Assembly: GCA_022451865.1 (NCBI GenBank)
Contig: JAKUNM010000001.1
Location: 4,733-68,732 of the forward strand
From: Dehalococcoidia bacterium
Lineage (GTDB): Bacteria; Chloroflexota; Dehalococcoidia; UBA2979
DNA length: 64,000 nucleotides
Reading direction: 5' to 3'
In this document: positions 9,641 to 64,000 of the stretch, piece after piece
How the letters are laid out: every line of letters begins with the position of its first letter
Position numbering within the stretch: position 1 is the first letter of the stretch
Position numbers and translations under genes: made by a program
The notes under the pieces: model-generated
Database searches by the model: none
Seen by the model: only the letters and a program-made list of their open reading frames with translations
What the model was told of the DNA's origin: nothing

Positions 9641-9652
9641 AAAGCGATAGTA

Positions 9653-21305: not shown

Positions 21306-21398
21306 ATTTTCAGTTGACTGCATATTGGGGTTACAATATATTTCTGTTTTTTTAGATGTACGTATTAGTAATGACTAAATATTAGAGGTAGGTGTAAT

Positions 21399-22802: not shown

Positions 22803-22921
22803 AATTATTAACTTTAAAGAAAATGATACTTTCTCCTTTTTTAATATTAAGGTTATCTATGTAATTAGGTGTTATGTAGTACCATTAAATCATTATAAAA
22901 AATTATCGAAAGTGAGATTCA

Positions 22922-23563: not shown

Positions 23564-23592
23564 GATAAAGATAAATCCAACTTGGAGGTTTT

Positions 23593-24906: not shown

Positions 24907-24964
24907 CTGTGTGATAAATAATTCTTATATTGACTAAATTCTGTTTTATATCAATTATGGAAAA

Positions 24965-25744: not shown

Positions 25745-26618
25745 TTCCCCTCAAAGTGTAATGATTTGCTATAGCCCTTCTATAGAAGGTGCAGAAGAAC
25801 TAGCCATGGACATGTATCAATTATGTGTCGAAAATAATTTGCGATGTGAAATTAAACCTCTTTCAGATTCAATAAGTGAAATGTCTGATGATTTACTTAA
25901 ACAACTTTCTAATAGTGATCTTCTGATTTGTGTAGGAGGTGATGGTAGTGTTTTACATGCATCTGCCTATGCTTCATCGATGCAAATACCAATTCTAGGC
26001 GTTCGAATGGGAAGATTAGGTTTTCTAAGCGAATTGACTAGTCAAGAAGCTTTAACTGGCTTAAAACAGGTCATAAATGGGTTGTCTCGATTAGAAAGTC
26101 GATCAATTGTAAAAGCTCAACTTGATGGAGAATCTGAAATTTTTGCATTAAATGATGTCGTAATAGGTAGATCTACATTAGGCCGTACCGTTGCTGTTGG
26201 CGTGATAATTGATGGAGTTTTAGTTGCTGAATATCGAGCAGATGCTGTCATTCTCTCCACTGCTACAGGCTCAACTGGTTATTCTTTATCTGGTGGTGGT
26301 CCAATTCTATTCCCTACTTCTAAAGAAATGATTGTAATGCCTGTGGCACCTCACTTGACTCGTTCAAACGCACTAGTTATTCCACCTACAAGTGATGTTG
26401 ATTTTTATGTTGAACGAGGTTATGAAGCTGTTTTAGCTGTAGATGGGTTGTATGAATATCCTTTAAAATCTGGCTCAAAAGTTAAGGTTTCATCAGCTAA
26501 TCGATATGTTGATTTTGTCCGTTTAGGTGATGGATCACAATTTTATTCTAATCTTGCTGATAGATTGGGATGGTTACGAACTGATCATGTTCGTCATGAC
26601 TTAACTGAATCATGTTAG
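25731..26618 (+). CDS. nadK: NAD(+) kinase
   Basis: GGDGSVLHA (GGDG motif) and NDVVIGRS. The ATG at 25731 overlaps the tlyA stop; the track ORF from 25674 is a spurious N-terminal extension. Confidence 0.85.
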   Translation: MKKFNSPQSVMICYSPSIEGAEELAMDMYQLCVENNLRCEIKPLSDSISEMSDDLLKQLSNSDLLICVGGDGSVLHASAYASSMQIPILGVRMGRLGFLSELTSQEALTGLKQVINGLSRLESRSIVKAQLDGESEIFALNDVVIGRSTLGRTVAVGVIIDGVLVAEYRADAVILSTATGSTGYSLSGGGPILFPTSKEMIVMPVAPHLTRSNALVIPPTSDVDFYVERGYEAVLAVDGLYEYPLKSGSKVKVSSANRYVDFVRLGDGSQFYSNLADRLGWLRTDHVRHDLTESC

Positions 26619-26682
26619 AATCAAGATAATTTATTAGTGAATTTTGTCGAGAATTTTTATAATTAATCTTATCCTTGAACAT

Positions 26683-27177
26683 ATGACGAAATTAAATATT
26701 GATAATATTATTTCTGATTCTTTATTTCCTGTACCTGCCACAATTAATGATGGTGTCGGGATACAAGAATTAGTGAATCATTGGGCCGCTCAAGGTTTAA
26801 TGTTACCACGTACCTTGGCACAAACTTATGAAAATTTAAGAGATTTTTTTGTTGTTAAGGATGGACAACAAATAATTGCTTGTGCTGCATTACATATTGT
26901 ATGGGATGATATGGCGGAATTAAAATCTCTCGCTGTTGCACCTGGTCATCAGTCTGGTGGTTATGGTAGTAAACTCGTTGCTGCTTGTGTAGAAGAAGGT
27001 AAAAGGCTTGGAATGCAGCAACTTTTTGCTTTAAGTTATGAACCAGAATTTTTTGAAAAGCTAGGTTGGCAAGTCGCGAATGTAATGGAACTTCCTCGTA
27101 AAGTATGGAACGAGTGCTATCGATGTCCAAAATTCCCTGGGTGTAATGAAATCGCACTGACATATGATTTGGGATAA
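26683..27177 (+). CDS. GNAT-family N-acetyltransferase (amino-acid N-acetyltransferase-like)
   Basis: GNAT motif A HQSGGYGSKLV plus the surrounding fold pattern. Start is ambiguous between TTG at 26644 and ATG at 26683. Confidence 0.65.
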   Translation: MTKLNIDNIISDSLFPVPATINDGVGIQELVNHWAAQGLMLPRTLAQTYENLRDFFVVKDGQQIIACAALHIVWDDMAELKSLAVAPGHQSGGYGSKLVAACVEEGKRLGMQQLFALSYEPEFFEKLGWQVANVMELPRKVWNECYRCPKFPGCNEIALTYDLG

Positions 27178-27182
27178 TTATC

Positions 27183-27740
27183 TTGCAAAAAAAGAGTGAT
27201 AACTTCATTCCTAAGGTACTTTCGTCTGAGATTGTTTTAGAAGGAACGCCTTTTGATATAGAAGAAGCACATATACAATACCCTGATAATATTGAAACCA
27301 ACAAGATGGTGGTACTTCATCCTGGAGCTATTGCATTGATTGTGATTGATCATGAAGATCGATTCTTGTTAATTAATCAATATCGATATCCGACAAAGAA
27401 GATTTTGTTAGAAATTCCAGCAGGTACACGTGAACCTAATGAACAGCCTCTAGAAACTGCAGCCAGAGAAATCCGAGAGGAAATTGGGTATTCCGCTGAA
27501 AGTCTAGTTCACATAGGTGGAACATGGATGGCTCCTGGTTTTTGTACAGAATATATAGATTATTTTGTTGCATCTAACTTGTCTCATGACCCTTTACCAC
27601 AAGATCCTGATGAATTTATTAGTGAACCTATCAGAGTTACCTATGAAGAAATGATTAGTTTAATTGGTGACGGTAAAATCAAAGATGCCAAATCAATTGC
27701 TGGGTTTATGCTGTATCAGATATATAGGAGTAACGAATGA
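27183..27740 (+). CDS. NUDIX hydrolase (ADP-ribose pyrophosphatase-like)
   Basis: Nudix box GTREPNEQPLETAAREIREEIGY (Gx5Ex7REUxEExGU). Confidence 0.8.
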   Translation: MQKKSDNFIPKVLSSEIVLEGTPFDIEEAHIQYPDNIETNKMVVLHPGAIALIVIDHEDRFLLINQYRYPTKKILLEIPAGTREPNEQPLETAAREIREEIGYSAESLVHIGGTWMAPGFCTEYIDYFVASNLSHDPLPQDPDEFISEPIRVTYEEMISLIGDGKIKDAKSIAGFMLYQIYRSNE

Positions 27741-27863
27741 TCAATCTTCTAAATTAAATTGGAGACTATGACGTTTTGGTTGTAGTGTATTATATAATTC
27801 TTATAAGTAGCGAATTGTAGATTATGGTAGTTTATTTTCGAAGAATTTGAGTATAAGGACGTT

Positions 27864-28655
27864 ATGACACAAGCAACTTTAAGTAATTCCGAATCTCTTA
27901 ATCGTCGATATGGTCTTACTAAACGTTTAGATCGTTGGTGGTTCGAACCTTTACTTACAGGTGGCGGTCTATTAACTTTTGTGATTTATTCTTCTGTTTC
28001 TGCTTTACTTGGTCATTCGTGGGCATTTGAAACTGAACATGAGCTGTATCTTTCCCCGTTTTTTGAACCACTTATTACTCCGGAATTTTTGCCGATGTGG
28101 TTCTCACCAGCATTACTAATACTATGGGCTCCACTGGGTTTTCGAACTACTTGTTATTACTACCGTCGTACATACTATAGAGCCTATTTCCTAAGTCCTC
28201 CAGCTTGTGCAGTCCGTGAACCAGCTGGTTCTTATAGTGGTGAGGGAAAATTTCCACTCATTATTCAAAATTCACATCGCTATTTCATGTATGTTGCTGT
28301 TGTATTTGTGCCTATTCTTTGGCTAGGTGCTATAAAGTCGTTTTATTTACCTGGTGAAGGAATCGGGGTTGGTGTTGGTTCTATTATAATGACTTTGAAT
28401 GCTTTCTTCTTAATGATGTATACCGTCGGATGCCATTCTTTAAGACACTGGGTTGCTGGTGGCATTAATAGCTTTTCGAATACACCTCTACGACGTGTAC
28501 GTCGCAAAGTATGGGAAATTTTCACTGTGGCAAATGAACGTCATAAAGCTTGGGCTTGGACAAGTTTAATATGGGTAGGAGTCACCGATTTATATATCCA
28601 TTTGGTTGCTTCAGGGGTGATAACGGACCTAAATACTTTTACTGGTCCAATTTAA
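27864..28655 (+). CDS. sdhC: Succinate dehydrogenase/fumarate reductase cytochrome b subunit (single-subunit anchor, b558-like)
   Basis: Polytopic membrane protein with ~5 TM helices immediately upstream of sdhA-sdhB; conserved His residues in TM helices. No specific motif checked beyond this, hence moderate confidence. Confidence 0.6.
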   Translation: MTQATLSNSESLNRRYGLTKRLDRWWFEPLLTGGGLLTFVIYSSVSALLGHSWAFETEHELYLSPFFEPLITPEFLPMWFSPALLILWAPLGFRTTCYYYRRTYYRAYFLSPPACAVREPAGSYSGEGKFPLIIQNSHRYFMYVAVVFVPILWLGAIKSFYLPGEGIGVGVGSIIMTLNAFFLMMYTVGCHSLRHWVAGGINSFSNTPLRRVRRKVWEIFTVANERHKAWAWTSLIWVGVTDLYIHLVASGVITDLNTFTGPI

Positions 28656-28686
28656 ATCTCAGCTAATATTATATGAAGGGCAATTT

Positions 28687-30480
28687 ATGGCTGATATTGA
28701 AATTTTAGAATTTGATGTGTTAATTATAGGTGCTGGTGGTGCTGGATTACGTGCTGCTGTTGAAGCTTCTTCACGAGGTATGAAAACAGGATTAGTATGT
28801 AAGTCCCTTTTAGGTAAAGCCCATACGGTTATGGCTGAAGGAGGTATGGCTGCTGCCATGGGTAATGTCTGGGCAGAAGATAATTGGAAAGTACATTTCC
28901 GCGATACCATGCGCGGTGGGAAAATGCTTAACAATTGGCGAATGGCACAGCTTCATGCTCAAGAATCTCCTGAACGTGTTCATGAACTAGAAGAATGGGG
29001 TGCTCTATTTGATAGAACTAAAGATGGTTTGATATCACAACGTGACTTTGGTGGTCATAGATATGCACGATTAGCACATGTTGGCGATCGTACAGGATTG
29101 GAAATGATCAGAACCTTACAACAACATGCAGTGCATCAAGGCATTGATGTTTTTCAAGAATGCACGATCAATCGTCTTTTAAAATCTGAAGATGGTTCTA
29201 TATCTGGGGCCGTTGGCTATTGGCGTGAAAGTGGAAAATCGATAGTTTTCAGATCCAAAGCTATTGTATTAGCTACGGGAGGCTTGGGGAAAATCTGGTC
29301 AATTACATCCAATTCTTGGGAAGGCACAGGTGATGGTCACGCTTTAGCTTTATATGCAGGAGCAGAAGCTATTGATATGGAATTCGTACAATTTCACCCC
29401 ACTGGTATGGTTTGGCCACCTAGTGTCAAAGGTATACTCGTTACCGAAGGTGTCCGAGGTGATGGCGGTACTCTACGCAATTCTTCGGGTGATCGTTTTA
29501 TGTTTGATTACATACCCTCGATGTTTGCTTCAGAGACTGCAGATACAGAAGCTGAAGCAGATAAATGGTATGAGGATAAGACAGTTCGACGCACTCCTGA
29601 TCTTTTGCCAAGAGACGAAGTTGCTAGAGCAATTAATGCAGAAGTGAAGGCTGGTCGCGGTAGCCCACACGGTGGAGTTTTTCTTGATATAGCTTCACGC
29701 CGTGATTCAGAATATATCCAGCGGAGATTACCTTCGATGTATCATCAATTCATGCAGTTAGCTGGAGTGGATATCACTAAAGAATCTATGGAAGTTGGTC
29801 CTACAGCTCATTATGCAATGGGAGGGGTCCGAGTAGATCCAGAAACTGCTGCAACTACTGTGCCAGGTCTTTTTGCTGCTGGAGAAGTTGCAGGAGGAAT
29901 GCACGGTTCTAATCGTTTAGGCGGGAACTCTCTATCAGACTTGGTAGTGTTTGGAAGAAGAGCCGGGATTGGTTCTTCAGAATATGCTCAAACAGTTGAA
30001 GAATTACCAAATATAGATAAATCAGAAATTGATACGCGAATAGCCGAAATGCATAAACCATTTTCTGATGAAGGTTCCGAAAACCCTTATTCGATACATA
30101 GAGAACTTCAAGAAACAATGCAGAAAAATGTTGGAATTATACGTACAGAAATAGAGATGAAAACTGCTATAGAAGATATCCAATCTCTTCGAGATAGATA
30201 TAATTTGGTTGGTATTGAAGGAAATATGCAATATAACCCTGGATGGCATATGGCTTTAGATTTAGAACATATGTTGACTGTCGCTGAAGCAGTGACACGT
30301 GCTGCCTTAGAACGTAAAGAGAGTCGTGGTGGTCATACTCGTGATGATTTCCCTGAAACATCCACGGACTTTGGGAAAGTTAACGTTGTAATTAAATTAG
30401 ATAATTCAGAGGTTGTAGTGTCTCAAGACGAGCTTCCTGTGATGCCTGATGATTTACAACAACTATTTGAGGAGAACTAG
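28687..30480 (+). CDS. sdhA: Succinate dehydrogenase/fumarate reductase flavoprotein subunit
   Basis: FAD-binding VLIIGAGGAGLRAA, covalent-FAD His region, HYAMGG motif; ~600 aa. Confidence 0.9.
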   Translation: MADIEILEFDVLIIGAGGAGLRAAVEASSRGMKTGLVCKSLLGKAHTVMAEGGMAAAMGNVWAEDNWKVHFRDTMRGGKMLNNWRMAQLHAQESPERVHELEEWGALFDRTKDGLISQRDFGGHRYARLAHVGDRTGLEMIRTLQQHAVHQGIDVFQECTINRLLKSEDGSISGAVGYWRESGKSIVFRSKAIVLATGGLGKIWSITSNSWEGTGDGHALALYAGAEAIDMEFVQFHPTGMVWPPSVKGILVTEGVRGDGGTLRNSSGDRFMFDYIPSMFASETADTEAEADKWYEDKTVRRTPDLLPRDEVARAINAEVKAGRGSPHGGVFLDIASRRDSEYIQRRLPSMYHQFMQLAGVDITKESMEVGPTAHYAMGGVRVDPETAATTVPGLFAAGEVAGGMHGSNRLGGNSLSDLVVFGRRAGIGSSEYAQTVEELPNIDKSEIDTRIAEMHKPFSDEGSENPYSIHRELQETMQKNVGIIRTEIEMKTAIEDIQSLRDRYNLVGIEGNMQYNPGWHMALDLEHMLTVAEAVTRAALERKESRGGHTRDDFPETSTDFGKVNVVIKLDNSEVVVSQDELPVMPDDLQQLFEEN

Positions 30481-30482
30481 TC

Positions 30483-31223
30483 ATGCCAAAAGCAAAATTA
30501 CAAGTATGGCGTGGTGATGAAGATGGCCAGTATCAAGATTATGAAGTCGAATACGAAGAAGGTATGGTAATTCTTGATGTCATACATAAATTGCAAGCTA
30601 CTCAAGCTACAGACCTTGCCGTTCGTTGGAATTGCAAAGCTGGTAAATGTGGTTCATGTAGTGCAGAAATCAATGGTAAACCTGTTCTTCAATGTATGCA
30701 GCGTATGGAAATATATCCTGAAGATGAAACAATTTCAGTCGCACCTTTAAAAACCTTTCCTCTTATACGTGATTTGGTTACAGATGTGAGCTGGAATTAT
30801 GAAAAAGCTAAAACCATGCCTGAAGTGAAATTACAACCTGCAGATGCTGATGGAAACCACCGAATGGCTCAAATCGACGTTGACCGTGGACAAGAATTTA
30901 GAAAATGTATCGAATGTTTTATGTGCCAAGATGTTTGTCATGTTATTCGTGAACATGCTGAAAATATGGATGCATTTGCAGGGCCTCGTTTTTTTATTCG
31001 TTTAGCTGAAATTTCTATGCATCCTTTAGATTCAAATTCTAATGAAGCTACTGTTCAGCATGGCTTTGGATTGGAATATTGTAATATTACTAAGTGCTGC
31101 ACAGAAGTATGCCCTGAAGGCATTCATATTACTGATAATGGCATTATTCCTCTGAAAGAAAGAAGAGCTGACGTTTATTACGATCCTTTACGCGCTATTG
31201 GTCGTAAAATATTTAAACGTTAG
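30483..31223 (+). CDS. sdhB: Succinate dehydrogenase/fumarate reductase iron-sulfur subunit
   Basis: 2Fe-2S (CKAGKCGSCSAEING), 4Fe-4S (CIECFMCQDVC) and 3Fe-4S (CTEVCPEG) cysteine clusters. Confidence 0.9.
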   Translation: MPKAKLQVWRGDEDGQYQDYEVEYEEGMVILDVIHKLQATQATDLAVRWNCKAGKCGSCSAEINGKPVLQCMQRMEIYPEDETISVAPLKTFPLIRDLVTDVSWNYEKAKTMPEVKLQPADADGNHRMAQIDVDRGQEFRKCIECFMCQDVCHVIREHAENMDAFAGPRFFIRLAEISMHPLDSNSNEATVQHGFGLEYCNITKCCTEVCPEGIHITDNGIIPLKERRADVYYDPLRAIGRKIFKR

Positions 31224-45056: not shown

Positions 45057-46318
45057 TGTCAGGACCTCTAAAAGGAATTCGTGGAATTGTTCTAACTCAA
45101 GCATGGGCTGGCAGTTACTGTACAGAACTTTTTGCGATGGCTGGAGCTGACATCGTACAACTAGAGGTTCGTAAACGTCCCGATTCTTGGAGAGGAACGT
45201 ACACAGCTCCGATGTCAGAATCTATGAATAAAATATCCACTGCAAGGCATGTCTGGAATATCAATTCAAATTTTAATGCTGTTAATCTTGGGAAAAGATC
45301 CTTTACATTAGATTTATCGCGTGATGAAGGCGTGGATATTTTTAAATCTTTAATTAAGCACGCAGATTTTGTTGCTGAAAATTTCTCTCCTCGTGTAATG
45401 GGTAACTTAGGTTTTTCATATGAAGAATTATGTGAGATTAAACCTGATATTATTTTGGCTAGTCTTTCTGCATATGGCCATGATGGACCATGGTGTAATG
45501 TTCCAGGGATTGGAGGAACAGTAGAACCTACTTCCGGTATGTCTGCTTTATTAGGTTATGGAGATGGTGTGCCTATTAATTCAGGTGTTATGTATCCAGA
45601 TGCAGTTGCAGGTCTTTATGGATTTTCTGGCCTTTTGACTGCATTACACTATCGTAATCGTACTGGTAAGGGTCAGTTTGTTGATTTATCTATGCAGGAA
45701 GCTAATTTGGCTAATATTGGTGAAGCTGCATTAGAGTACACCTATACAAAGCAAGTCCCTAATGCGATAGGAAATCGTCATAAAATTTATGCTCCACACG
45801 GAATATTTCCTTGTGCCGATGGTGTTGAAGGGAATAAAAAGTGGATTGCTATTGCTGCTGAAAATGATACGCAATGGCTGGCACTGTGTGAAATCTCAGG
45901 TATGTCATGGGCGAGCAATTCGAAATTTAGCAATAATGTTTTACGTAAGGAAAACGAGGATGAACTTAATCAAGAAATTTCTTTATGGACTCGAGGACAA
46001 GATCGAGATTTACTTTCGGACTTTTTAAGTTCAAAAGGTGTGATAGCAGCCCCTGTCTTAAATGCAAAAGAATTATTAAACGATCACGTTCTACGTTCAC
46101 GTGGTGTTATTGTCGAGTTAGATCATCCAGAAGTAGGAAAAAAAGCTCAAATTGGAGCCCCCTTTCATTTTTCCCAAGACAAAATATCAGTAGAACGTCC
46201 ATCTCCTTTACAAGGAGAGCACTCGTTCGAAGTTTTTTCAGAGCTTTTAGGAATGGATCGTGATGAATATGAAAAGTTAGTCGCAGAAAATATTTCAGGG
46301 GAAGGACCACCGAAATGA
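45056..46318 (+). CDS. Family III CoA-transferase (CaiB/BaiF family), second paralog
   Basis: LKGIRGIVLTQAWAGSYCTELFAMAGADIVQLE N-terminus. Start overlaps the upstream stop (TAATG). Confidence 0.85.
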   Translation: MSGPLKGIRGIVLTQAWAGSYCTELFAMAGADIVQLEVRKRPDSWRGTYTAPMSESMNKISTARHVWNINSNFNAVNLGKRSFTLDLSRDEGVDIFKSLIKHADFVAENFSPRVMGNLGFSYEELCEIKPDIILASLSAYGHDGPWCNVPGIGGTVEPTSGMSALLGYGDGVPINSGVMYPDAVAGLYGFSGLLTALHYRNRTGKGQFVDLSMQEANLANIGEAALEYTYTKQVPNAIGNRHKIYAPHGIFPCADGVEGNKKWIAIAAENDTQWLALCEISGMSWASNSKFSNNVLRKENEDELNQEISLWTRGQDRDLLSDFLSSKGVIAAPVLNAKELLNDHVLRSRGVIVELDHPEVGKKAQIGAPFHFSQDKISVERPSPLQGEHSFEVFSELLGMDRDEYEKLVAENISGEGPPK

Positions 46319-47157
46319 AAGATTTTGAACAAATTCGATATGTCGAGGAAGATCACGTTGCTCGTATAATTCTTGATCGCCCAAATTATCGCAATGCTCA
46401 GAGTAGAAAACTTCTTGAAGAAATGGATGAAGCTTTTGACTTAGCTGTTGATAATAGAAAAATTCGAATGATAGTTCTTTCTGGTGAAGGGCATTCTTTT
46501 TCAGCAGGTCATGATTTAGGTACTCCTGAAAACATTGCAGATCAAGAAAACCGTCCCTATGAAGAAGGGATGAGAGGTATATATAAAAGATCTACAGCTC
46601 AGAATGTCACTAATACATTGCGTTGGAGGAATATTCCCAAACCAACTATGGCTATAGTACATGGGTACTGCATATTTGGTGGCTGGATGATTGCATCTGC
46701 GATGGATCTAATTTTTGCTGCTGATGATGCTATGTTCTTAGGGACTAACTTTCAATATTTTTCACCTCCGTGGGATATCCATCCCCGAAAAGTAAAGGAA
46801 ATTTTCTTTGAAAGTCGATTTATTGATGGTAAAGAAGCTCATGAACTTGGCCTAGTTAATAGGGTTTACCCTCAGGAAATCTTAGAAAAAGAGGCTATGT
46901 CTTATGCACATCGTGTTGCGGAAAACGATGAATTTCAACTTCGTCTTATTAAACTAGCAGTAAATCGTGCTCAGGATAATCAAGGATTCACAGAACATAT
47001 TAATGATGCTCACTTACTTCATTTATTAAGTAGTCAAGCTGAGAAAGATCCTGATTTTGCATTGCAGAAGCCAGACATGCGTCGAAGACCAATGGTTCAA
47101 CGTGCGGTTGAAAACTATGAGTTACATAAAAAAAATAATTTGCAAAAAGAAGAGTAA
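46315..47157 (+). CDS. Enoyl-CoA hydratase/isomerase (crotonase superfamily)
   Basis: VARIILDRPNYRNAQS..L..E..EA........IRMIVLSGEGHSFSAGHDL oxyanion-hole region. 4-nt overlap with the upstream gene. Confidence 0.85.
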   Translation: MKDFEQIRYVEEDHVARIILDRPNYRNAQSRKLLEEMDEAFDLAVDNRKIRMIVLSGEGHSFSAGHDLGTPENIADQENRPYEEGMRGIYKRSTAQNVTNTLRWRNIPKPTMAIVHGYCIFGGWMIASAMDLIFAADDAMFLGTNFQYFSPPWDIHPRKVKEIFFESRFIDGKEAHELGLVNRVYPQEILEKEAMSYAHRVAENDEFQLRLIKLAVNRAQDNQGFTEHINDAHLLHLLSSQAEKDPDFALQKPDMRRRPMVQRAVENYELHKKNNLQKEE

Positions 47158-54479: not shown

Positions 54480-56291
54480 ATGATAAAAAATACAATTGCT
54501 CGCATTGAGATACTTCCTGAAGATATTGCTGCACGTATAGCCGCAGGTGAAGTAATTGAAAGACCTGCAAGCGTAGTAAAAGAGTTGGTTGAGAATTCAA
54601 TAGATGCCGGAGCCACTCGAGTTGATATTTCTATTGATGAAGGAGGAATTTCTTCCATTCGTGTGCGCGATAATGGACATGGGATACCCTCTGATCAAAT
54701 AAATAATGCTTTTATTAGACACGCTACATCAAAATTAAAAACAATTGATGATCTCTATTCTGTTCGTACTTTAGGATTTCGCGGTGAAGCTTTGGCTTCG
54801 ATTGTTGCTGCTGGTAATGTTGATTTGATTACAAGAACAGCATCTGATCTCAATGCATCATTTATGCAATTTAACTCTGGAACACATGGTGAAATTTTAC
54901 CTTATGCAGCTGCAAAAGGAACTTCTGTAGAAGTAAATGATCTTTTTGCAATGTTACCAGCACGTAGAAAATTTATTGGCAAGCCTTTGTCCGAGAAACG
55001 TGCAGTAGTTCGTTTAGTCGAAGAATATATTATTGGTTATCCCTCTATACGTTTTGTCCTCATGGATGGAAATAAAATACTGCTTAAATCTAGTGGTAAT
55101 GGAGTCTTGCAAGAAGCTATCGCCACGGTTCATGGGAATGAAGTTGCAGAGACATTAATTCCTTTTAAATATGATGAAGACCTTGGAAGTGAGATGACAA
55201 TTCGAGGGTTTATTGGACCACCTTCCTTACATCGTTCTAACCGAAATTTTATGCATCTATTTGTTCAAAATCGGGCTATCAAATCTCGTAGTCTTAATGT
55301 TGCTATTGAACAATCATATTCCGGTTTGATTCCTCGCAATCGACATCCTGTATCCGTTCTATTGCTACAGCTGCCTGACGAACATGTCGATGTCAATGCG
55401 CATCCCAGAAAAGAATCAGTACGATTTTTAGACGATAGGTCAGTATTTAAAGCTGTTCGTATTGCGGTATCTAAAGGCCTCATGGATAAAAGGAGTCTAG
55501 AAAATCGGCAAGAAGGTTTTTCACGTGAATTTGACATAACAAAAACTGCTAGACAGAAAATTCTTTTGAGTGCTAAATCTTCACTAATTAGATCTGGAAT
55601 AACTGATGAAGTTAAGCATTATTTCGATGTTAATAATAATGTTTCTGATACTCCTCACGATTTTAATACAAATTTTACTTTTGAATTTAGTGATTTAGTT
55701 CCTATCTTGAAACCTATAGGGCAATTTGCTCTGACATATATTATTGCTGAAGGTCCTGAAGGGTTGTATTTGATAGATCAGCATGCAGCACATGAAAGAG
55801 TGCAGTACGAGAAAATTTTGCGAAATCGTAATCAAATTAATGGTGATGTTACCCAACCATTACTTCAAACTATTGTTCTTGAAATGAGTGCTTCAGAACT
55901 AGCTTTTGTAGAGCAAATTTTTGATGAATTACATCAAGTCGGATGGATTTTGGGAAAAACGGATGGTAATGCAATTTTACTTCGAGGTATTCCAGCTATT
56001 CTTAGTACGGATGCCTTACGTAAGAAGCAACCGTTAGATGCAGATCTTCTTTTTCGTGAATATATAGCATCCATGGAGTCTGAGGAAGGTCAAAGTTACC
56101 CTGATCGTGTTGCCGCATCTCTGGCTTGTCGCTCTGCAGTTATGGCTGGCGATATTCTTACTGAAAAACAACAGCGTGTGGTTATCGAAGCTCTTGAAAA
56201 AACTAATAACCCGCAAACCTGTCCTCATGGTCGCCCTACTATGTTGTACTGCCAGCAATTTGATATTGAGAGAGCGTTCTTGAGAAGATAG
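54480..56291 (+). CDS. mutL: DNA mismatch repair protein MutL
   Basis: GHKL ATPase motifs ELVENSIDAGATRVDISIDEGG and VRDNGHGI. C-terminal dimerisation domain. RBS AGGGG. Confidence 0.9.
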   Translation: MIKNTIARIEILPEDIAARIAAGEVIERPASVVKELVENSIDAGATRVDISIDEGGISSIRVRDNGHGIPSDQINNAFIRHATSKLKTIDDLYSVRTLGFRGEALASIVAAGNVDLITRTASDLNASFMQFNSGTHGEILPYAAAKGTSVEVNDLFAMLPARRKFIGKPLSEKRAVVRLVEEYIIGYPSIRFVLMDGNKILLKSSGNGVLQEAIATVHGNEVAETLIPFKYDEDLGSEMTIRGFIGPPSLHRSNRNFMHLFVQNRAIKSRSLNVAIEQSYSGLIPRNRHPVSVLLLQLPDEHVDVNAHPRKESVRFLDDRSVFKAVRIAVSKGLMDKRSLENRQEGFSREFDITKTARQKILLSAKSSLIRSGITDEVKHYFDVNNNVSDTPHDFNTNFTFEFSDLVPILKPIGQFALTYIIAEGPEGLYLIDQHAAHERVQYEKILRNRNQINGDVTQPLLQTIVLEMSASELAFVEQIFDELHQVGWILGKTDGNAILLRGIPAILSTDALRKKQPLDADLLFREYIASMESEEGQSYPDRVAASLACRSAVMAGDILTEKQQRVVIEALEKTNNPQTCPHGRPTMLYCQQFDIERAFLRR

Positions 56292-56353
56292 ACTATCTCT
56301 ATGGTGCAATTTAGTTGCAACATACAAAACTATATGTAGCCTATAGAGTCAAT

Positions 56354-56429
56354 GCCGAGATAGCTCAGTTGGTAGAGCACACGACTGAAAATCGTGGTGT
56401 CCCCAGTTCAATCCTGGGTCTCGGCACCA
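56354..56429 (+). tRNA. tRNA-Phe (anticodon GAA)
   Basis: GCCGAGA-TA-GCTC-AGTTGGTA-GAGC-A-CACGA-CTGAAAA-TCGTG-GTGTC-CCCAG-TTCAATC-CTGGG-TCTCGGC-ACCA. Canonical cloverleaf, anticodon GAA, CCA encoded; 76 nt. Confidence 0.9.
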
Positions 56430-56434
56430 TCTTT

Positions 56435-58084
56435 CTAGCTTGCAGGTACCCAACCACCATATACAGGGAATTGGCTGCATATAAATTCTAGATATGCTGG
56501 TTGTCCTTTTTCATTAGCTGCTAGCGCTTCTTCTAGTGCGTTTTCTATTTCATCGGGATCATCAATACGTAATGATAAGTAACCAAGTTCAGCAGCAATT
56601 TTTGACATATTTAATTCATTGTATCCGGTAACTTCGTGCGTATAAGGATCATGCCCATCTCCCCAAAAGCCTGGACCATACCCTGCGAATCCTCCATTCG
56701 CTATATGTACTATGGTGATTCCAAGCTGATATCTGGTGGCTACTTCTAAATTTCCTAGCATATAACCGATACCTGCATCACCGCTTACTGCTACACATTG
56801 TCGGTTGGGGAAAGATAATTTTGCAGCGATAACTCCACCGAAGCTAAAACCCAAAGTTGAAACATTCCCCCAGCCTAAGAATCCTCTCGGGATCGTCGTT
56901 TTATATGCGGTAGATAATTGGTCTCTTGTATTGCCTGATTCATGTGTGAGGAATGAGTTGTATGGGTCTAGTGTGTTTTGGAGACCAGAATATACACGGT
57001 ATGGATTAATTGGTTTGTCCGTTGAGTTCAAGTATTCATTATATTCATTTGTAAACTCATTTTTAGAATTTTCAACTTCTTGGAGTAAATTTTTATTGTG
57101 ATTATGTATAGAATTTTTCTTAAGTTCATTTATTAATGCACGTAAAGAAAGTTGGACGTCACCAATGATGGCATAATCAGTAGGACTCATTTTATTGATA
57201 TCCCATTCGTCAATTATAATTTGAACAATTTTTTTCTGAGATGCATTGGGAATGCCATGGCTAAATCTTCCTGGGGAAAGACTAGCTCCAATTGCAAAGA
57301 TAGTATCACTTTCATTAAGGAATTTTGTTGCAGGTCCTCCTCTTACTCCTATGGATAGGTCGTGCGTTTCAGGAAATGCACCTTTAGCTTTATTTGTAGT
57401 AATAACTGGAGTTTCCATTAGTTCTGCTAATTCTAAAAGTTCATCAGTCGCATTCCCGTAGAGTATGCCTTCTCCAGCAAAAATTAATGGTCTACCTGCA
57501 TCACGTAGGATCTGTGCTGCTTGAGAGACATCTGAAGGATCAGGTCCAGATCTCCATCCTTTAACAGGAATATATGGGTTTGTATTTTCATCGTATTCTC
57601 CTAATCCTCTTGGAATAGCAAGAAATACAGGCCCAGGTCTGCCAGTTCGTAATAATGTAAATGCTCTTCGTAGAAATTGTGGAGTTGATTCCGGGGTATC
57701 GATCCTCGCTGACCATTTTGTAACATGTTTAAAAGCTGCTACTGGGTCAAAAGGTGAATTTTGAGTTTGTCCAGTTGGCACTCCATCGGCAAGCAATAGC
57801 ATGGGGGATCCATCTTCATAAGCCTGGGCCATTGCTCCATATGCTATCTGAAGTCCTGCTGAATTTACGCCTCCCATTACTGTTGCTACACCAATTTTAT
57901 TTCCATTGTTAAGCCTTGAATATGCATCTGCAACTGCAGGTGCATAGCGATCGTCACGCATCATGACTAAGCGCATATTTTCTTTTCCCAGTGCATTATT
58001 GACTGCATTTGTGGGGAAAGTTGAAACAAATTCAACGCCTTCAGATTTTAAAATTTTTGCTATACCTACTTCTGGTGTGATCAT
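56435..58084 (-). CDS. Thiamine pyrophosphate-dependent enzyme (acetolactate synthase large subunit / sulfoacetaldehyde acetyltransferase-like)
   Basis: Three-domain TPP-enzyme layout. TPP-binding motif SGDAGIGYMLGNLEVATRYQLGITIVHIANGGF (GDG...NN-type); 549 aa. Confidence 0.75.
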   Translation of the reverse strand: MITPEVGIAKILKSEGVEFVSTFPTNAVNNALGKENMRLVMMRDDRYAPAVADAYSRLNNGNKIGVATVMGGVNSAGLQIAYGAMAQAYEDGSPMLLLADGVPTGQTQNSPFDPVAAFKHVTKWSARIDTPESTPQFLRRAFTLLRTGRPGPVFLAIPRGLGEYDENTNPYIPVKGWRSGPDPSDVSQAAQILRDAGRPLIFAGEGILYGNATDELLELAELMETPVITTNKAKGAFPETHDLSIGVRGGPATKFLNESDTIFAIGASLSPGRFSHGIPNASQKKIVQIIIDEWDINKMSPTDYAIIGDVQLSLRALINELKKNSIHNHNKNLLQEVENSKNEFTNEYNEYLNSTDKPINPYRVYSGLQNTLDPYNSFLTHESGNTRDQLSTAYKTTIPRGFLGWGNVSTLGFSFGGVIAAKLSFPNRQCVAVSGDAGIGYMLGNLEVATRYQLGITIVHIANGGFAGYGPGFWGDGHDPYTHEVTGYNELNMSKIAAELGYLSLRIDDPDEIENALEEALAANEKGQPAYLEFICSQFPVYGGWVPAS

Positions 58085-58277
58085 TATATTGGTTACTCCA
58101 TGCTGTTTTTGCCAATGAATTGTTAATCGATGTATAGATTAAGTCTCAACAAAATACAAGAGGAAAAGAAACAATACATGTTTTTTTAAAAAAAATGACA
58201 ATATTTTTTATTAATTGTCCATTACATCAACCTAAAGTTTTGGTGCGTGATGAATATGCCTGCTATTATCCTAAGGT

Positions 58278-59147
58278 TTGATAGAGGTTTATATGGGAAG
58301 AATTTTTGTCATAGGCGGTGGTTTAGGTGTCGGTGCAACAACAATTGCGGTTGGGCTTACAAAATATTTAATTGATAAAGGCTATGCTATCTCCTTAGAT
58401 CGATTTGGCAGTGATGATCGTGCTAACGATGATTTTCAATTATTTAAGGATCTAGGGTTCAGTAGAGAGAATGCCCCTCTAACTTTAGATCAAATTTCTG
58501 TGCCACCTACTGAAGGCTTAATTCAAATTATTGAACTTCCGCATGATACTGAAATTGATGTAATTCATCGTCAATTTGAAGCACGAATAGTATATGTACA
58601 AGCAATGGGAACTGAAAAAATCGCCCCTGATGAAAGTATTATCTTCTTAAATCGTGCTAGTGAATCTAGTGTTGGAGTATTGATGGAAGACAGGTGCTTA
58701 GCTTCTCCACGTGTAATTGATTTGGTTGGTGTAAGTAACGCAGACGTCCTCGTTTATTCAAGTGAAGGGCAAAATGCCATTTGTGAGAATATTGTGGCAG
58801 GTGCAATTTCGCATGATCCAGCAGATGATTATTTCCAACGCTTTGCCAACTCAGCTATCGTTACTCGTAATGGTCGTGTTGACCTTGCATTGGCAGCGAT
58901 GCTTTCTGGTGCGAAATGCTTAATTTTAAGTGGTGGCGGAAACCCTAGTCCTTATATTTTAGACCGAGCAGCTTCTGATCGTTCTACAACTATCCTACTA
59001 ACTAAAGATTCGACTGTTGCTACGTTAAAAAATATTCAAGGTGCATTTGGGATAGCGCCTTTCTCAGGCGACGAAAAGATCGAAAAAATTACGCAATTGT
59101 TTATAGATGTAATTGATGATGAATTAGTGCGAGCACTAACAGTATAG
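58278..59147 (+). CDS. Stand-alone phosphotransacetylase N-terminal-like regulatory protein (degenerate P-loop domain plus DRTGG-like domain)
   Basis: N-terminal Gly-rich loop IFVIGGGLGVGATTIAVGL lacks the Walker lysine. C-terminal LILSGGGNPSPYILDRAASDRSTTILLTKDST resembles the DRTGG domain of Pta N-terminal regions. No catalytic PTA domain. Confidence 0.45.
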   Translation: MIEVYMGRIFVIGGGLGVGATTIAVGLTKYLIDKGYAISLDRFGSDDRANDDFQLFKDLGFSRENAPLTLDQISVPPTEGLIQIIELPHDTEIDVIHRQFEARIVYVQAMGTEKIAPDESIIFLNRASESSVGVLMEDRCLASPRVIDLVGVSNADVLVYSSEGQNAICENIVAGAISHDPADDYFQRFANSAIVTRNGRVDLALAAMLSGAKCLILSGGGNPSPYILDRAASDRSTTILLTKDSTVATLKNIQGAFGIAPFSGDEKIEKITQLFIDVIDDELVRALTV

Positions 59148-59160
59148 AAGTTTAAACATC

Positions 59161-61368
59161 CTACCTAGGACTTAAGGGTGCAAATGACAGCATTAACTTC
59201 TTAATTCCTTGCCCTTCAAATGCAACTATTATTTGCTGATCATCCTGAAGTACTGTGCATTCTATGACTGTGCCATTTCCGAATTTTTTGTGAACAACTT
59301 GGTCTCCAGGTTGATAGCTTGCTATTTGTAATTTGAGATTTTCTTGTTTTTCTGTTTGTCGAGTTTGAGCAGCTCCTCTTAATCCACGTTCTTTTATTTC
59401 AGTAGTAAAGGTAGTTTCTCTAAAAGGGTATTGAAGGTTTTCTTCAGATATATCATTTAAGAACCTTGAAGGAGGATTATTTCTGAATGTCCCATAAAGA
59501 AAACGACTCGCCGATCTCGTAAGATAAAGGATATGTTCTGCACGAGTCATTCCTACATAAAAGACACGTCGCTCCTCTTCTAATTGTTTTGGATCATCAA
59601 AAGAACGAATTGAAGGAAGTAATCCTTCCTCCAATCCAGGCATAAAAACAACAGGAAACTCTAATCCTTTTGCCGAATGGAGACTAGTTAATGTGACAGT
59701 TGGGGTTTCATCATTAGGACCATCGACATCTGAAACGAGTGCAATTTCCTCTAAAAATTGCGATAAAGTCGAATCTGGTGATACATCCTGATAGAGAGTA
59801 GCAACTGATCTAAGTTCTTCGATATTTTCCCAACGTCCTTCAGCATGTTCTGTATCAGTTTCTGTTAGATGTTCCCGGTAGTTGATGGTGGATAATAATT
59901 TATCTAAAAGTTCTATGATTGTGTTTTGTTTTGAATATTCTTCGAGCATTTCGATTTGGTGGACTAACTGTTGTAGGTTTTCCTTTCTTCTACTAGTAAA
60001 AGTTGGGAAACGGGAGTCATTATTAGTAATACCAGCACAGACATCAATTGGTGATATTCCTAGCTCTAGTGAAGAATTTAAGATTTGCTCCAGTGATTTT
60101 TTACCAATATTTCTTTTTGGAATATTTACTATCCTTTGAAATGCAAAGCTATCGAATGGATTATAGATGACTCTTAAGTATGCAATGACATCTCGAATTT
60201 CCAGTCGATCATAAAATCGAGTTCCACCAACAATCCTGTAAGGTATAGATTTTCGAATAAGTGCATCTTCAATTGCACGTGATTGTGCATTGATACGGTA
60301 CATAACTGCAAAATCCGAATAATTGTATCTTGTATTTTGGGTTAAGCGACGTATTTCATCAGCAATAAATTGTCCTTCTGTATCACTGTCTGTAGCAGTA
60401 TAGCTGTATACTTTTTCTCCTTGTGGATTATTAGTCCATGTAGATTTATTCGGTCGATTCGGTAGCTGGTTAATTACTGAATCAGCAGCTTTAAGTATAT
60501 GCTCAGTACTGCGATAATTTTGTTCAAGTAAGATTGTTTGTACTGTTGGGAAGTCTCTTCGTAAGTATTCAATATTTCGAATATCCGCAGCACGCCATGA
60601 GTAGATTGATTGATCTGGATCACCTACGACAGTTATATTTTTGTGAGTAGATGCTATCAATTGTGCGATTTGATACTGAATAACGTTAGTGTCTTGGAAT
60701 TCATCGATTAACGTATGGATATAACGGCTTGTGTACTTTTCAAGTATTAGTGCACTATTCTCAAAAAGTTCTAGAGTTTTTCCTAATAAATCATCAAAAT
60801 CTACTGCGCCACTTTGAGATAAACCTTTTGTGTATTCTTTGAATACTCTTCCAACTACTTCTTCGAAATAATTTTCAACATTTTTTTGGTATGTGGAATC
60901 AGTAAATCTTTTGTTTTTAGCACTGGAAATTGTCGATAGTATTTGTCGAGGTGGAAATTTTTTCGAATCTATGTTTAAGTTTGATTGAATCTGGCGAATT
61001 AAAGCTAATTGATCTGCTGTATCATATATAACAAAATTGGTTGGCAGATCTATTTTACTTCCATCTACCCTTAATATCCGCGCACATATCGAATGGAACG
61101 TTCCCATTGATAATGATATTGCTTTATCACCGAGTAACTGATGTATACGTTCTCGCATTTCCCGTGCAGCTTTATTTGTGAAAGTTACTGCTAAAATTCG
61201 ATGGGGATCGATATTTAATGATTCTATAAGGTATGCAATCCTATGAGTGATAACTCTAGTTTTTCCTGAACCTGGACCTGCTAAGATAATAAGAGGCCCA
61301 GACGGAGTTTCGACAGCAAGTTGTTGATTATCATTAAGTTCAGTGTTCATATTTTTCATATCTATCAA
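59161..61368 (-). CDS. uvrD: ATP-dependent DNA helicase, UvrD/PcrA family
   Basis: Walker A AGPGSGKTRVITHR, helicase motifs II-VI, and a Tudor-like PcrA/UvrD C-terminal end; 735 aa. Confidence 0.9.
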   Translation of the reverse strand: MIDMKNMNTELNDNQQLAVETPSGPLIILAGPGSGKTRVITHRIAYLIESLNIDPHRILAVTFTNKAAREMRERIHQLLGDKAISLSMGTFHSICARILRVDGSKIDLPTNFVIYDTADQLALIRQIQSNLNIDSKKFPPRQILSTISSAKNKRFTDSTYQKNVENYFEEVVGRVFKEYTKGLSQSGAVDFDDLLGKTLELFENSALILEKYTSRYIHTLIDEFQDTNVIQYQIAQLIASTHKNITVVGDPDQSIYSWRAADIRNIEYLRRDFPTVQTILLEQNYRSTEHILKAADSVINQLPNRPNKSTWTNNPQGEKVYSYTATDSDTEGQFIADEIRRLTQNTRYNYSDFAVMYRINAQSRAIEDALIRKSIPYRIVGGTRFYDRLEIRDVIAYLRVIYNPFDSFAFQRIVNIPKRNIGKKSLEQILNSSLELGISPIDVCAGITNNDSRFPTFTSRRKENLQQLVHQIEMLEEYSKQNTIIELLDKLLSTINYREHLTETDTEHAEGRWENIEELRSVATLYQDVSPDSTLSQFLEEIALVSDVDGPNDETPTVTLTSLHSAKGLEFPVVFMPGLEEGLLPSIRSFDDPKQLEEERRVFYVGMTRAEHILYLTRSASRFLYGTFRNNPPSRFLNDISEENLQYPFRETTFTTEIKERGLRGAAQTRQTEKQENLKLQIASYQPGDQVVHKKFGNGTVIECTVLQDDQQIIVAFEGQGIKKLMLSFAPLSPR

Positions 61369-61398
61369 TTCTACGATTTATTATTTTTCTGGGGTAAC

Positions 61399-62109
61399 AT
61401 GGAACGAGTGATCTTCGCAATCCTATATCCTCATGGAGGTGAATACTTGGAAATATTGCTAAGCTGGCCTGGGGGCGATTGGCAAACCACACTGAGACTA
61501 GTTGGTGCAGTGGTTGCTGGCTATTTTCTTCTGTTGTGGGCGACATATATTTTATGGGTTGCTAGGGATATCCGCTTGCGTACTCATGACCCTGTATCAC
61601 AAATTATTGCGATTTTGATAGCGATAATTTTACCTTTTGTTACATTCCCTATTTATATAACTCTTAGACCACGAGAAACTTTACAAGATTCTTATCTGAA
61701 ATTACTTGAACGTGAAGTCCTTTTTTCTCAATTGGAAGAAATACAAAATAATTCTCAAGTTTTTCAATCTAATGACTTGAATTCATTGGGAAGTACATTA
61801 TTAGCTGAGATGGATGCACATGAATTAATCGAATCATCTGAACCTACTCTTTTCTTTGATGACGTTGATGAGATCGAGTTCGATGAGTTTGATTCTCAAG
61901 TGAGATATTCACTAACATCTTCAGAGGATGAAGTCATAAATGAGGACATCGAGGAGTTCTCTCTAGAGGATGAAGTCATAAATGAGGACATCGAGGATAT
62001 TTTTTTCAGGATCTTTGTTATCAATCTCGAAATTTACTTCTTCAATTTCATCAAAAGAAAGTTTTTGGGGAGATCTCTCGATGTCCTCATTTATGACTTC
62101 ATCCTCTAG
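61399..62109 (+). CDS. Small membrane protein (PLDc_N-like two-TM domain) with an acidic C-terminal tail encoded partly by 42-bp tandem repeats
   Basis: Start at internal Met MERVIF.... Two TM helices with ...IILPFVTFPIYITLRPRE (resembles cardiolipin-synthase N-terminal-type domains). Then D/E-rich low-complexity sequence including SEDEVINEDIEEFSLEDEVINEDIE encoded by the forward repeat arm. The 3' end and stop fall inside the inverted repeat array, so the true C-terminus is uncertain. Confidence 0.5.
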   Translation: MERVIFAILYPHGGEYLEILLSWPGGDWQTTLRLVGAVVAGYFLLLWATYILWVARDIRLRTHDPVSQIIAILIAIILPFVTFPIYITLRPRETLQDSYLKLLEREVLFSQLEEIQNNSQVFQSNDLNSLGSTLLAEMDAHELIESSEPTLFFDDVDEIEFDEFDSQVRYSLTSSEDEVINEDIEEFSLEDEVINEDIEDIFFRIFVINLEIYFFNFIKRKFLGRSLDVLIYDFIL

Positions 62110-62195
62110 AGAGAACTCCTCGATGTCCTCATTTATGACTTCATCCTCTAGAGAGAACTCCTCGATGTCCTCATTTATGACTTCATCCTCTAGAG
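61923..62195. repeat. Inverted array of 42-bp tandem repeats: ~1.75 forward units, a ~78-bp spacer, ~2.9 reverse-complement units
   Basis: Forward unit GAGTTCTCTCTAGAGGATGAAGTCATAAATGAGGACATCGAG at 61923-61996. Its exact reverse complement CTCGATGTCCTCATTTATGACTTCATCCTCTAGAGAGAACTC occurs three times in tandem at 62077-62195. The arms are identical over more than 70 bp. Confidence 0.85.
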
Positions 62196-62233
62196 ATAAG
62201 ACCTAAAATATATCTCTTGCCAATATGTTATTT

Positions 62234-62863
62234 CTAACTCAATGCGTTATCCAGTAAATCAATCAACTCAGCTATTTGTGATTGTCTCCAGCCCTCAGCT
62301 ACTTCCCATTGTCTGTTAAGGTAGAGTTCTCGTGCTTCATCCCATTCAGGAGTTCCTCGCTCTTTGCCATGCAAAATTTCTACTAGAGAGCTCATTTCTG
62401 AGTTTGCTAAATCTGATCGCTCAATCCAATGACCTAAATATTCATGCGATTCATTATAAAAAACGATTACAGGTATAGATTCGAACTCTCCGTCTTTTAA
62501 GAACTCTGACATTATGTCAGAGTTCTTGTCTCTTTCAAAAAGCCTTAATTCCATTCCAGTTTGTTCAGCTAAAGCACAAGCCACAGGTAACCCTCTCCAA
62601 ACATCAGGACACCAATCTTCTCCTATAATAAGTGCATGAATACCATCAGATTGAATATAGTTTTTGAATGTCTCTATATCTTTGGTTTGAAGATTGAACT
62701 CGTCATAATGGCGTTGAAACAAGTGGGCATTTTTTTCAATCGAATTCATCCATTCGTCAAAATTAGTCATTCCACTACGATATCGTTCTAGGGTAACAAC
62801 GGAGTTTCCATTATTACTCTCAGAATTTTCTTTTCTTGTAATTACTGAACTCGGCGTCGTCAT
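62234..62863 (-). CDS. Thioredoxin-fold family protein (single-Cys WCPDVW motif), function unknown
   Basis: 209 aa. ...ALIIGEDWCPDVWRGLPV... in the position of a thioredoxin-like active-site turn. The Cys codon is TGT, not TGA. Confidence 0.4.
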   Translation of the reverse strand: MTTPSSVITRKENSESNNGNSVVTLERYRSGMTNFDEWMNSIEKNAHLFQRHYDEFNLQTKDIETFKNYIQSDGIHALIIGEDWCPDVWRGLPVACALAEQTGMELRLFERDKNSDIMSEFLKDGEFESIPVIVFYNESHEYLGHWIERSDLANSEMSSLVEILHGKERGTPEWDEARELYLNRQWEVAEGWRQSQIAELIDLLDNALS

Positions 62864-62908
62864 AATATTTCTCCAATTTTTAGATATGTTTTGCGTAATA
62901 CTACATAA

Positions 62909-63967
62909 CTATACCAAATTATCCCAAATTTTCTGATGTTCTAAGGATGATAATTCACTAATTTCTTTTTTTTCAGATTGCGCTCTTGATTCCAAATTTT
63001 TGAATTGTTCTACATATTTGTTAGAGCTGTTACGTAGGATTAGCTCAGCATTTAATTTCTTCTCATTAGCCAACAAGATCGTTGTCCAAAGTAATAGTTC
63101 TATTGCTTGCGTGTAATCTTCTTGATTAAGAGATTCTTGTATAGATTTAATTTGTTGTTCGGTAGAAATTTGTGCTTTAGGTAGTCCCATTTTTTCTGAT
63201 CTCGACAATAATTGTTGTGTCCTTGATAGCGCAGGGGCACTACGTGGGACTGAATCTATAGCACTTTTTGATTCAGGTGTATCCTTTTCTTTACGTTCTT
63301 GTGTTTTAATTATTTGCCATTGTTGTTCAATTTCATCCGGAGATTGATCTTTTGAAACGCCAAAAACATGTGGATGTCGGCGTATGAATTTTTTTGATAC
63401 GTGCTCTATCACATCTTCTAATGTGAATTCATCAGCTATTTGTGCGAGGGAGGTTTGCATGAAAATATGTGCTAGAAGATCTCCCAGTTCCTCAAGGCAT
63501 TCATTACTATTTCCAGCTTCAATCGCATCAATTAATTCGTAGGTTTCTTCTAGAAGAAAAGGTATTAAGCTCTTCGGTGTTTGTTCTTGATCCCAGGGAC
63601 ATCCTTCTGGACTAAATAGTTTTTCAATAATTGCACGCAATGTAGTTATAGGTCTTGAATCAGAAGTAATAGGTAAACTTGGAATGAGCCAAGCATCACA
63701 ATTTGTTGGTGCATCAATAAGATTAAAAGTTGATATTCTACCTTTACTTATTACGCTGATTTCTAAATTTTCTGTATACCTACTTAGTAACAAAGGTACA
63801 CTTTCTTCAATTTCACTTTTTAGGATTAGTAATTTCCTTCTGGTATCGAAATTAGTGTACTTTAGATTAAGAACTTGTAGTTCGTTAGGTTCTAACTGAA
63901 ATAATTCAGCAACGTGAGTTAAATCTAAAAATTGGTCTGATATTTTATTATTCGGATTAGTTACCAT
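62909..63967 (-). CDS. mazG: Nucleoside triphosphate pyrophosphohydrolase MazG (tandem MazG domains) with a ~100-aa N-terminal extension
   Basis: FSPEGCPWDQEQTPKSL..LLEETYELIDAIE....EELGDLLAHIF in domain 1. A second, degenerate MazG repeat follows (HPHVFG...). 352 aa. Confidence 0.8.
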   Translation of the reverse strand: MVTNPNNKISDQFLDLTHVAELFQLEPNELQVLNLKYTNFDTRRKLLILKSEIEESVPLLLSRYTENLEISVISKGRISTFNLIDAPTNCDAWLIPSLPITSDSRPITTLRAIIEKLFSPEGCPWDQEQTPKSLIPFLLEETYELIDAIEAGNSNECLEELGDLLAHIFMQTSLAQIADEFTLEDVIEHVSKKFIRRHPHVFGVSKDQSPDEIEQQWQIIKTQERKEKDTPESKSAIDSVPRSAPALSRTQQLLSRSEKMGLPKAQISTEQQIKSIQESLNQEDYTQAIELLLWTTILLANEKKLNAELILRNSSNKYVEQFKNLESRAQSEKKEISELSSLEHQKIWDNLV

Positions 63968-64000
63968 GTGGAAAGTATACTAAAGAGTGAGAATAACGCG

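Follow-up and report, generated by a model that had tools for sequence, protein, structure and literature searches.

Coding tandem repeats of the VNTR type occur in bacterial surface and membrane proteins, where their normal behavior is a change of copy number in direct orientation. The window analyzed here (the whole stretch of 64 kb, from a Dehalococcoidia metagenome-assembled genome, or MAG) carries a comparable repeat at the end of a small membrane protein gene, with a 42-bp, 14-aa in-frame unit that varies among strains. Unlike in ordinary VNTR loci, part of the array in the window is inverted, and the VNTR class covers the substrate only.

Invertible DNA switches, including invertase phase variation and shufflons, have inverted repeats that flank a short segment. 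The locus in the window has the same outline, and a flip of the enclosed segment alters the C-terminus of the encoded protein in frame. It differs from these switches in having no inverted repeats in relatives, no nearby recombinase, and no observed second orientation. Its arms are 78–81 nt of coding repeat, not short recombinase sites.

Chimeras formed by MDA are inverted in >85% of cases and show 2–21 nt of complementarity, and the predominant type is an inverted join to nearby sequence (Lasken and Stockwell, 2007; PMC1855051). In the window, the joined sequence likewise comes from nearby, is inverted, and has about 2 nt of junction homology; the join occurs in one data set only and shows no divergence. 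Unlike a single chimera, which has one junction, the window needs two linked junctions, and the MAG record bears no sign of amplification.

In Salmonella, inverted duplications form at short palindromes and are then remodeled by deletion, according to the work of Kugelberg et al. (2010; PMC2870977) as summarized in PMC4689423. The asymmetric forms of tandem inversion duplication (TID) outlined there have a forward-inverted-forward order (PMC2870977), which is also the order in the window, where the junctions fall on or beside short palindromes (TATCGATA, CTCTAGAG), are asymmetric, and have minimal microhomology. ODIRA (PMC4689423) and FoSTeS/MMBIR are related replication-error models. Compared with TID as it is summarized, the window differs in scale (about 200 bp, not kilobases) and has no evident copy-number selection; a symmetric precursor was not observed, and an in vivo origin is a proposal.

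Results

The array is the sole long inverted repeat and the sole strong tandem repeat in the 64-kb window. It consists of a 30-nt core, U (GAGGATGAAGTCATAAATGAGGACATCGAG), and a 12-nt linker, L (GAGTTCTCTCTA), which separates the cores and gives the 42-bp period. U is present in five copies with no mismatches, at 61924 and 61966 on the forward strand and at 62077, 62119, and 62161 on the reverse strand. The count expected by chance is zero (dinucleotide-preserving shuffles), and the inverted 42-bp array described in the sequence-only reading is therefore far beyond chance. The forward arm (61924–61995) is made up of U (61924–61953), L (61954–61965), and U (61966–61995). It is the canonical coding repeat, and its DNA is identical to that in independent assemblies; it encodes EDEVINEDIEEFSL in frame within the ORF at 61399–62109, giving the peptide EDEVINEDIE-EFSL-EDEVINEDIE. 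The inverted array (62077–62194, reverse strand) runs through rc(U) at 62077–62106, rc(L) at 62107–62118, rc(U) at 62119–62148, rc(L) at 62149–62160, and rc(U) at 62161–62190 and ends in a partial linker, TAGA, at 62191–62194. TRF reported 3.0 copies of a 42-bp period at 62070–62196. Read on the reverse strand, this array gives the same peptide repeat, which follows a stop and lacks a start codon. Both coding assignments had been made in the sequence-only reading and were confirmed.

A repeat search of the window paired 61917–61997 with 62117–62197 (81 nt, 98%) and 61918–61995 with 62077–62154 (78 nt, 97%). Complementarity is perfect over 72 nt (61924–61995), and the arms reach 78–81 nt with one mismatched codon (TCA vs. 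CTA). The arms had been described as 100% identical, which is correct for the 72 nt and not for the full 78–81 nt. The innermost cores are 81 bp apart (61996–62076), where a spacer of 78 bp had been given. RNA of 61900–62215 is predicted to fold into a single long hairpin (dG -177 kcal/mol, z = -19 vs. shuffles).

Ten ENA contigs of the same species (L001–L010) were used for comparison. They represent ten assemblies/samples and two assembler styles, none is known to share the sample of the MAG, and they were retrieved through the neighboring Trx_9 protein, which is encoded identically on 19 public contigs. The species is present at Station ALOHA and in bioGEOTRACES samples. The flanks are collinear with the window in all ten contigs, with 98.5–99.9% identity (blastn). 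The canonical DNA reads …TCTTCA-U-L-U-S-GATAAGACC-TAA, or in short A-U-L-U-S-GATAAGACC-TAA, and encodes a 229-aa protein. S is an 81-bp segment (AGATCT…AAAAATATC) that encodes RSPQKLSFDEIEEVNFEIDNKDPEKNI, the motif conserved at the C-terminus of the protein family. The layout in the window is A-U-L-U-rc(S)-rc(TCTA-U-L-U-L-U)-GATAAGACC-TAA. When canonical parts were joined by script, positions 61924–62194 equaled U-L-U-rc(S)-rc(TCTA-U-L-U-L-U) base for base, and from 62195 the sequence is the canonical GATAAGACCTAA. Relative to the canonical allele, a block of 199 bp (S plus 2.9 repeat units) is reversed in the window. S occupies 61996–62076 on the reverse strand in the window, and in all other assemblies it follows the repeat immediately and lies on the gene strand. 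In agreement with this, a 154–179-bp piece of the ten loci matches window positions 61996–62149/62174 in the opposite orientation (blastn).

The ten loci have 1–2 units each, every one on the gene strand, and none of the ten contigs has an inverted repeat >13 nt at the locus. The five units in the window exceed the 1–2 perfect units of every other same-species assembly. The five units U show zero divergence, as does the inverted S, which is 100% identical to S of L001, L005, L008, L009, and L010. The closest flanks are those of L002 (99.9% identity, with 5 mismatches in 5.9 kb and 2 in 1.8 kb), and the L002 allele is canonical. Between the membrane protein gene and the Trx_9 gene, the window is 118 bp longer than the canonical loci, in which the membrane protein (229 or 239 aa) ends 27 bp from the Trx_9 stop. 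For the canonical allele, the predicted RNA fold is no more stable than that of shuffles (z = +0.62). Elsewhere, the parts of the window that were compared (3827–11168, 20278–31089, and 56116–64000, about 26 kb) are collinear with other assemblies and essentially indel-free; for the 40–56 kb part, a look-up with 46315–47157 gave no match. The inverted repeat is real in the sequence, yet it is private to one metagenome-assembled genome. Absence from an independent assembly, which the sequence-only reading had named as telling against the element, was in spirit what we found, in ten of ten same-species assemblies, none known to come from the same sample.

Two junctions bound the reversed block, and neither is in any canonical allele. 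J1 (61994–61997, break at 61995|61996) reads …GACATCGAG|GATATTTTTTTC…. Its right side starts exactly at the center of a canonical 8-bp palindrome, TATC|GATA, and its microhomology is up to 2 nt (GA) if the left partner is U-L. J2 (62193–62197, break at 62194|62195) reads …CCTCTAGA|GATAAGACC…, has a 2-nt GA microhomology, and lies 3–5 nt from the center of the 8-bp palindrome CTCT|AGAG (62188–62195). The breakpoint S|D is common to J1 and J2 and coincides with the center of TATC|GATA; such centers make up 0.46% of window positions. CTCTAGAG recurs every 42 bp, in each unit, and the proximity of J2 to a palindrome is therefore weak evidence. Overall, microhomology at the two junctions is 0–2 nt, and the partner sequence is within 200 bp. 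A search with a J1 27-mer gave 0 matches in JGI metagenome and GTDB genome contigs, as did a control 27-mer from S, a sequence expected in every allele; at exact match the species is thus absent from both collections, which makes the result uninformative.

Because the canonical loci have no pre-existing inverted repeat for homologous inversion, the event was illegitimate. Clean inversion of a five-unit allele was considered and rejected; it predicts that one junction would have 8 nt more (GAGAACTC / GAGTTCTC) than it does, and thus either an imprecise inversion or an inverted duplication is required. The forward-inverted-forward order, the palindrome-adjacent junctions, and the minimal homology together are a signature of template switching or snap-back. 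The zero divergence of the five units and S points to a very recent or in vitro event.

The ORF as assembled (61399–62109, forward strand) encodes 236 aa and is NCBI MCH2657441.1 (MKZ81_00300, “MAG: hypothetical protein [Dehalococcoidia bacterium]”). Residues 1–199 are the canonical small membrane protein. Residues 200–236 (DIFFRIFVINLEIYFFNFIKRKFLGRSLDVLIYDFIL) are read-through of inverted DNA, consisting of the antisense of S and then the antisense of the unit as far as a TAG within rc(L). The canonical gene end, GATAAGACCTAA (62195–62206, forward strand; the last three codons, DKT, and the stop), is orphaned downstream of the inverted block, outside the assembled ORF, and the canonical 27-bp intergenic spacer comes after it. 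Homologues are a tight family of marine Dehalococcoidia/Chloroflexi proteins with two hydrophobic helices, an acidic region, a variable number of 14-aa units, and a C-terminal motif. The motif, QKLSFDE[VI]EEVNFE, is the C-terminal end of all homologues down to about 70% identity. It is lost in the window's protein alone, which has a hydrophobic nonsense tail instead. The window's product is known from one contig (78,891 bp), and the canonical 229-, 239-, and 215-aa products are known from many. No Pfam family scored above threshold for the membrane protein; PLDc_N (PF13396) reached 12.5 bits (E = 0.15) at residues 52–90, below its gathering threshold of 23.3 bits. Judged from sequence, the likeness of the helices to PLDc_N appears to be a weak resemblance only, and the protein family is without a name.

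The membrane protein gene lies between a divergent upstream gene encoding a UvrD/PcrA helicase (59161–61368, reverse strand), whose synteny is conserved, and a convergent gene encoding a Thioredoxin_9 (Trx_9) family protein of 209 aa (62234–62863, reverse strand). The order UvrD/PcrA, membrane protein, Trx_9, MazG is the same in the window and all ten contigs. No recombinase or invertase was found among about ten neighbors (DnaG, MMPL, Lit, MazG, Trx_9, UvrD, DRTGG, TPP enzyme, and MutL). Terminator-like sites (GC-rich stem plus T-run) were absent from 61900–62230, and one match, at 62498–62528, is inside the Trx_9 gene.

Discussion

The array in the window is very probably a private, non-functional rearrangement, either an artefact or a fresh mutation, and not an evolved element. 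We infer, with about even confidence, that the template switch took place outside the cell, in the tube or in assembly. A polymerase would have switched templates or snapped back inside the repeat, and chimeric DNA would have been made during amplification or library preparation. The assembler may also have mis-resolved the repeat tangle. The chimera would then have entered the MAG consensus, and the organism itself would have kept the canonical gene. An amplification or assembly chimera had been suggested from the letters and is still a live explanation. The arrangement is private to one assembly, the 99.9% identical L002 is canonical, and none of the ten same-species contigs has the inverted repeat. 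The unit count is above anything else in the species, the conserved C-terminal motif is destroyed, and the five units and S show no divergence. J1 and J2 match the description of an inverted join to nearby sequence with short priming homology (PMC1855051). The locus also breaks other assemblies: there is an N-gap with duplicated flanks in L006, the L010 and P0011 contigs end in the repeat, and L019 has a chimeric join to foreign AT-rich DNA. Against an artefact, an assembler cannot invent k-mers, and J1 and J2 must therefore have been in the reads, abundant enough to beat the canonical junction S|D. One real event yields two linked junctions, and two separate chimeras 200 bp apart are unlikely. 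The assembly is otherwise clean, as shown by the collinear, indel-free comparison elsewhere in the window; the same freedom from indels relative to Illumina assemblies led us to reject nanopore-type error as a cause. The record is labeled MAG, and MAGs and marine metagenomes are usually not MDA-amplified. These points would fit a genuine, very recent, strain-private mutation, which we consider quite possible, if somewhat short of an even chance. It would have arisen by an in vivo template switch or snap-back at short palindromes within the array, either as an asymmetric event of the tandem-inversion-duplication type or through inversion of a five-unit allele that was imprecise and lost 8 nt, and its product would be neutral or mildly deleterious and have no function of its own. 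Exactly two new junctions are needed and two are observed, both with up to 2 nt of microhomology. The S|D breakpoint falls on a palindrome center, as few window positions do, and the rest of the contig is clean and of high quality. The substrate is a real hypermutable repeat with 1–4 copies among strains. Arms of 78–81 bp should be tolerable in vivo given an 81-bp spacer, and the argument that so long an inverted repeat should be unstable is to that extent weaker than had been claimed. Salmonella provides documented cases of palindrome-born inverted duplications (Kugelberg et al., 2010; PMC2870977, as summarized in PMC4689423). On the other side, the arrangement is in one assembly only and the near-identical L002 is canonical, the assembled orientation destroys a family-wide motif, the arms have not diverged, the unit count is outside the species range, and, this record aside, a set of about 15 billion public proteins includes neither product isomer.

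A functional reading of the array fares less well than a template switch inside or outside the cell. As an invertible cassette, homologous recombination between the 78–81-nt arms would flip the 81-bp S and toggle the C-terminus between an acidic tail (…RSPQKLSFDEIEEVNFEIDNKDPEKNI-LDVLIYDFIL*) and a hydrophobic one (…DIFFRIFVINLEIYFFNFIKRKFLGRS-LDVLIYDFIL*). Both orientations are in frame and give 236-aa products, and the flipped isomer, which is the canonical protein with its last three residues (DKT) replaced by LDVLIYDFIL, regains the conserved motif. The isomers share all k-mers to k ~75, and short-read assembly can hardly tell them apart or detect a mixture. For the same reason, and because the arms are perfect over 72–78 nt, the assembler may have picked one of the two orientations of S for the contig arbitrarily. 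We nevertheless consider a functional cassette very unlikely. The inverted repeat is in no relative, which means that nothing has been selected, and no recombinase or invertase is encoded among the neighboring genes. The flipped product is absent from a 15-billion-protein collection, and the hydrophobic tail is the mere antisense of an acidic coding segment. The programmed swap of the C-terminus proposed in the sequence-only reading fails on these grounds. A version in which the cell truly carries the inverted repeat and RecA-type exchange between the 78–81-nt arms causes a flip-flop of acidic and hydrophobic tails without a dedicated invertase seems equally hard to credit, if not slightly more so; if true, it would be a newly born protein-tail switch made from a coding tandem repeat. 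That the array terminates transcription in both directions, or forms a structured RNA, between the convergent genes is extremely unlikely. The predicted hairpin is very stable and does lie between convergent genes, but its stem consists of the gene's own coding sequence, the canonical allele of the ten assemblies is unstructured (z = +0.6) and has an intergenic spacer of only 27 bp, and the search for terminator-like sites gave none at the array. The earlier description of the array as an inverted duplication of coding repeats and not a classical terminator agrees with this evidence. Finally, insertion of a MITE-like mobile element at the gene end can be practically dismissed. The short spacer between inverted arms recalls such an element, but arms and spacer are all local (units U and L and segment S) and 100% identical to the canonical gene. 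The arms copy the gene's own coding repeat, which has no further copy in the 64-kb window, and neither J1 nor J2 shows a target-site duplication.

The locus has a practical consequence for quality control. MCH2657441.1 (MKZ81_00300) very likely has a wrong or aberrant C-terminus, and the striking “cruciform” should not be read as a regulatory or mobile element. The idea that the inverted repeat has been retained for a function is not supported. If genuine, the array is a small natural case of a palindrome-born inverted duplication within a coding tandem repeat of an uncultured marine Dehalococcoidia, of modest interest for mutation mechanisms and no new kind of system.

The coding repeat itself stands apart from the question of its inversion. 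The 42-bp unit is repeated head to tail and in frame, encodes EDEVINEDIE-EFSL, and is a coding tandem repeat (VNTR). Unequal copy number in the two arms had been taken as a sign of genuine repeat dynamics; the dynamics are borne out by copy-number polymorphism, but they do not prove that the inverted arrangement is genuine. Copy number varies between conserved flanks among close relatives. The 14-aa coding repeat, in 1–4 copies among strains, is a genuine and ordinary polymorphism. In the window's species, the products are 215 and 229 aa, plus one of 239 aa with a diverged extra unit, and in the sister species 1, 2, 3, and 4 units give products of 195, 209, 223, and 237 aa, respectively.

Repeat copy number

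The membrane protein encoded at 61399-62109 (+) carries a 14-aa acidic unit, and its family matched no Pfam family above threshold. In the sister species, products with one to four copies of this unit are 195, 209, 223, and 237 aa long (P0029, P0009, P0007, and P0021), and in all of these forms the units precede a conserved C-terminal motif, QKLSFDE[VI]EEVNFE. Three versions of the protein from the window's own species (P0019, P0002, and P0006) were also compared for copies of the unit. Copy number of the 14-aa unit is a true polymorphism.

Assembly of the repeat region

Public contigs carrying the same locus show several kinds of irregularity. In L006 (ERZ23495243 scaffold_3706), the membrane protein gene (6600-7520) contains an N run, about 70 bp is duplicated on both sides of this gap, and a single repeat unit is present, which shows that the repeat region disrupts scaffolding. 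The end of contig L010 falls within the repeat. This contig comes from the same sample as L019 (ERZ23495677 scaffold_2344), in which positions 4001-4765 encode a 154-aa version of the protein (P0016). Identity of P0016 with the membrane protein holds to approximately residue 118, beyond which L019 continues into very AT-rich DNA with an HU-like gene (PF00216); L019 is probably an inter-genome chimeric contig.

Alignment of L008 (4864-8163) with window positions 60583-64000 showed a shift in identity at the repeat: the two sequences share 99.9% identity in the flank toward Thioredoxin_9 but just 96.2% in the flank that holds the membrane protein and UvrD/PcrA genes. This points to either a strain mosaic produced by recombination or a chimeric contig joining different strains. 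In L004 (ERZ23496132 scaffold_1195; 1791-4103 and 9629-10493), two ORFs stand in place of the MMPL gene, which encodes 770 aa elsewhere, and another two in place of the DRTGG gene (284 aa in other contigs); the scaffold also has a run of 10 Ns.

Neighboring genes

The longest UvrD/PcrA ORF in the window (59161-61368, -) begins at TTG and encodes 735 aa, compared to gene calls of 732 aa in all other assemblies; this difference reflects a trivial ambiguity in the choice of start codon. For the membrane protein, too, the longest plus-strand ORF begins at TTG (61321), but comparison with homologues supports a start at ATG 61399 or further downstream. The Thioredoxin_9 coding region contains an inverted repeat at 62499-62527, with perfect 14-bp arms and a loop of 1 nt, that has a terminator-like score on the plus strand, which is antisense to that gene.
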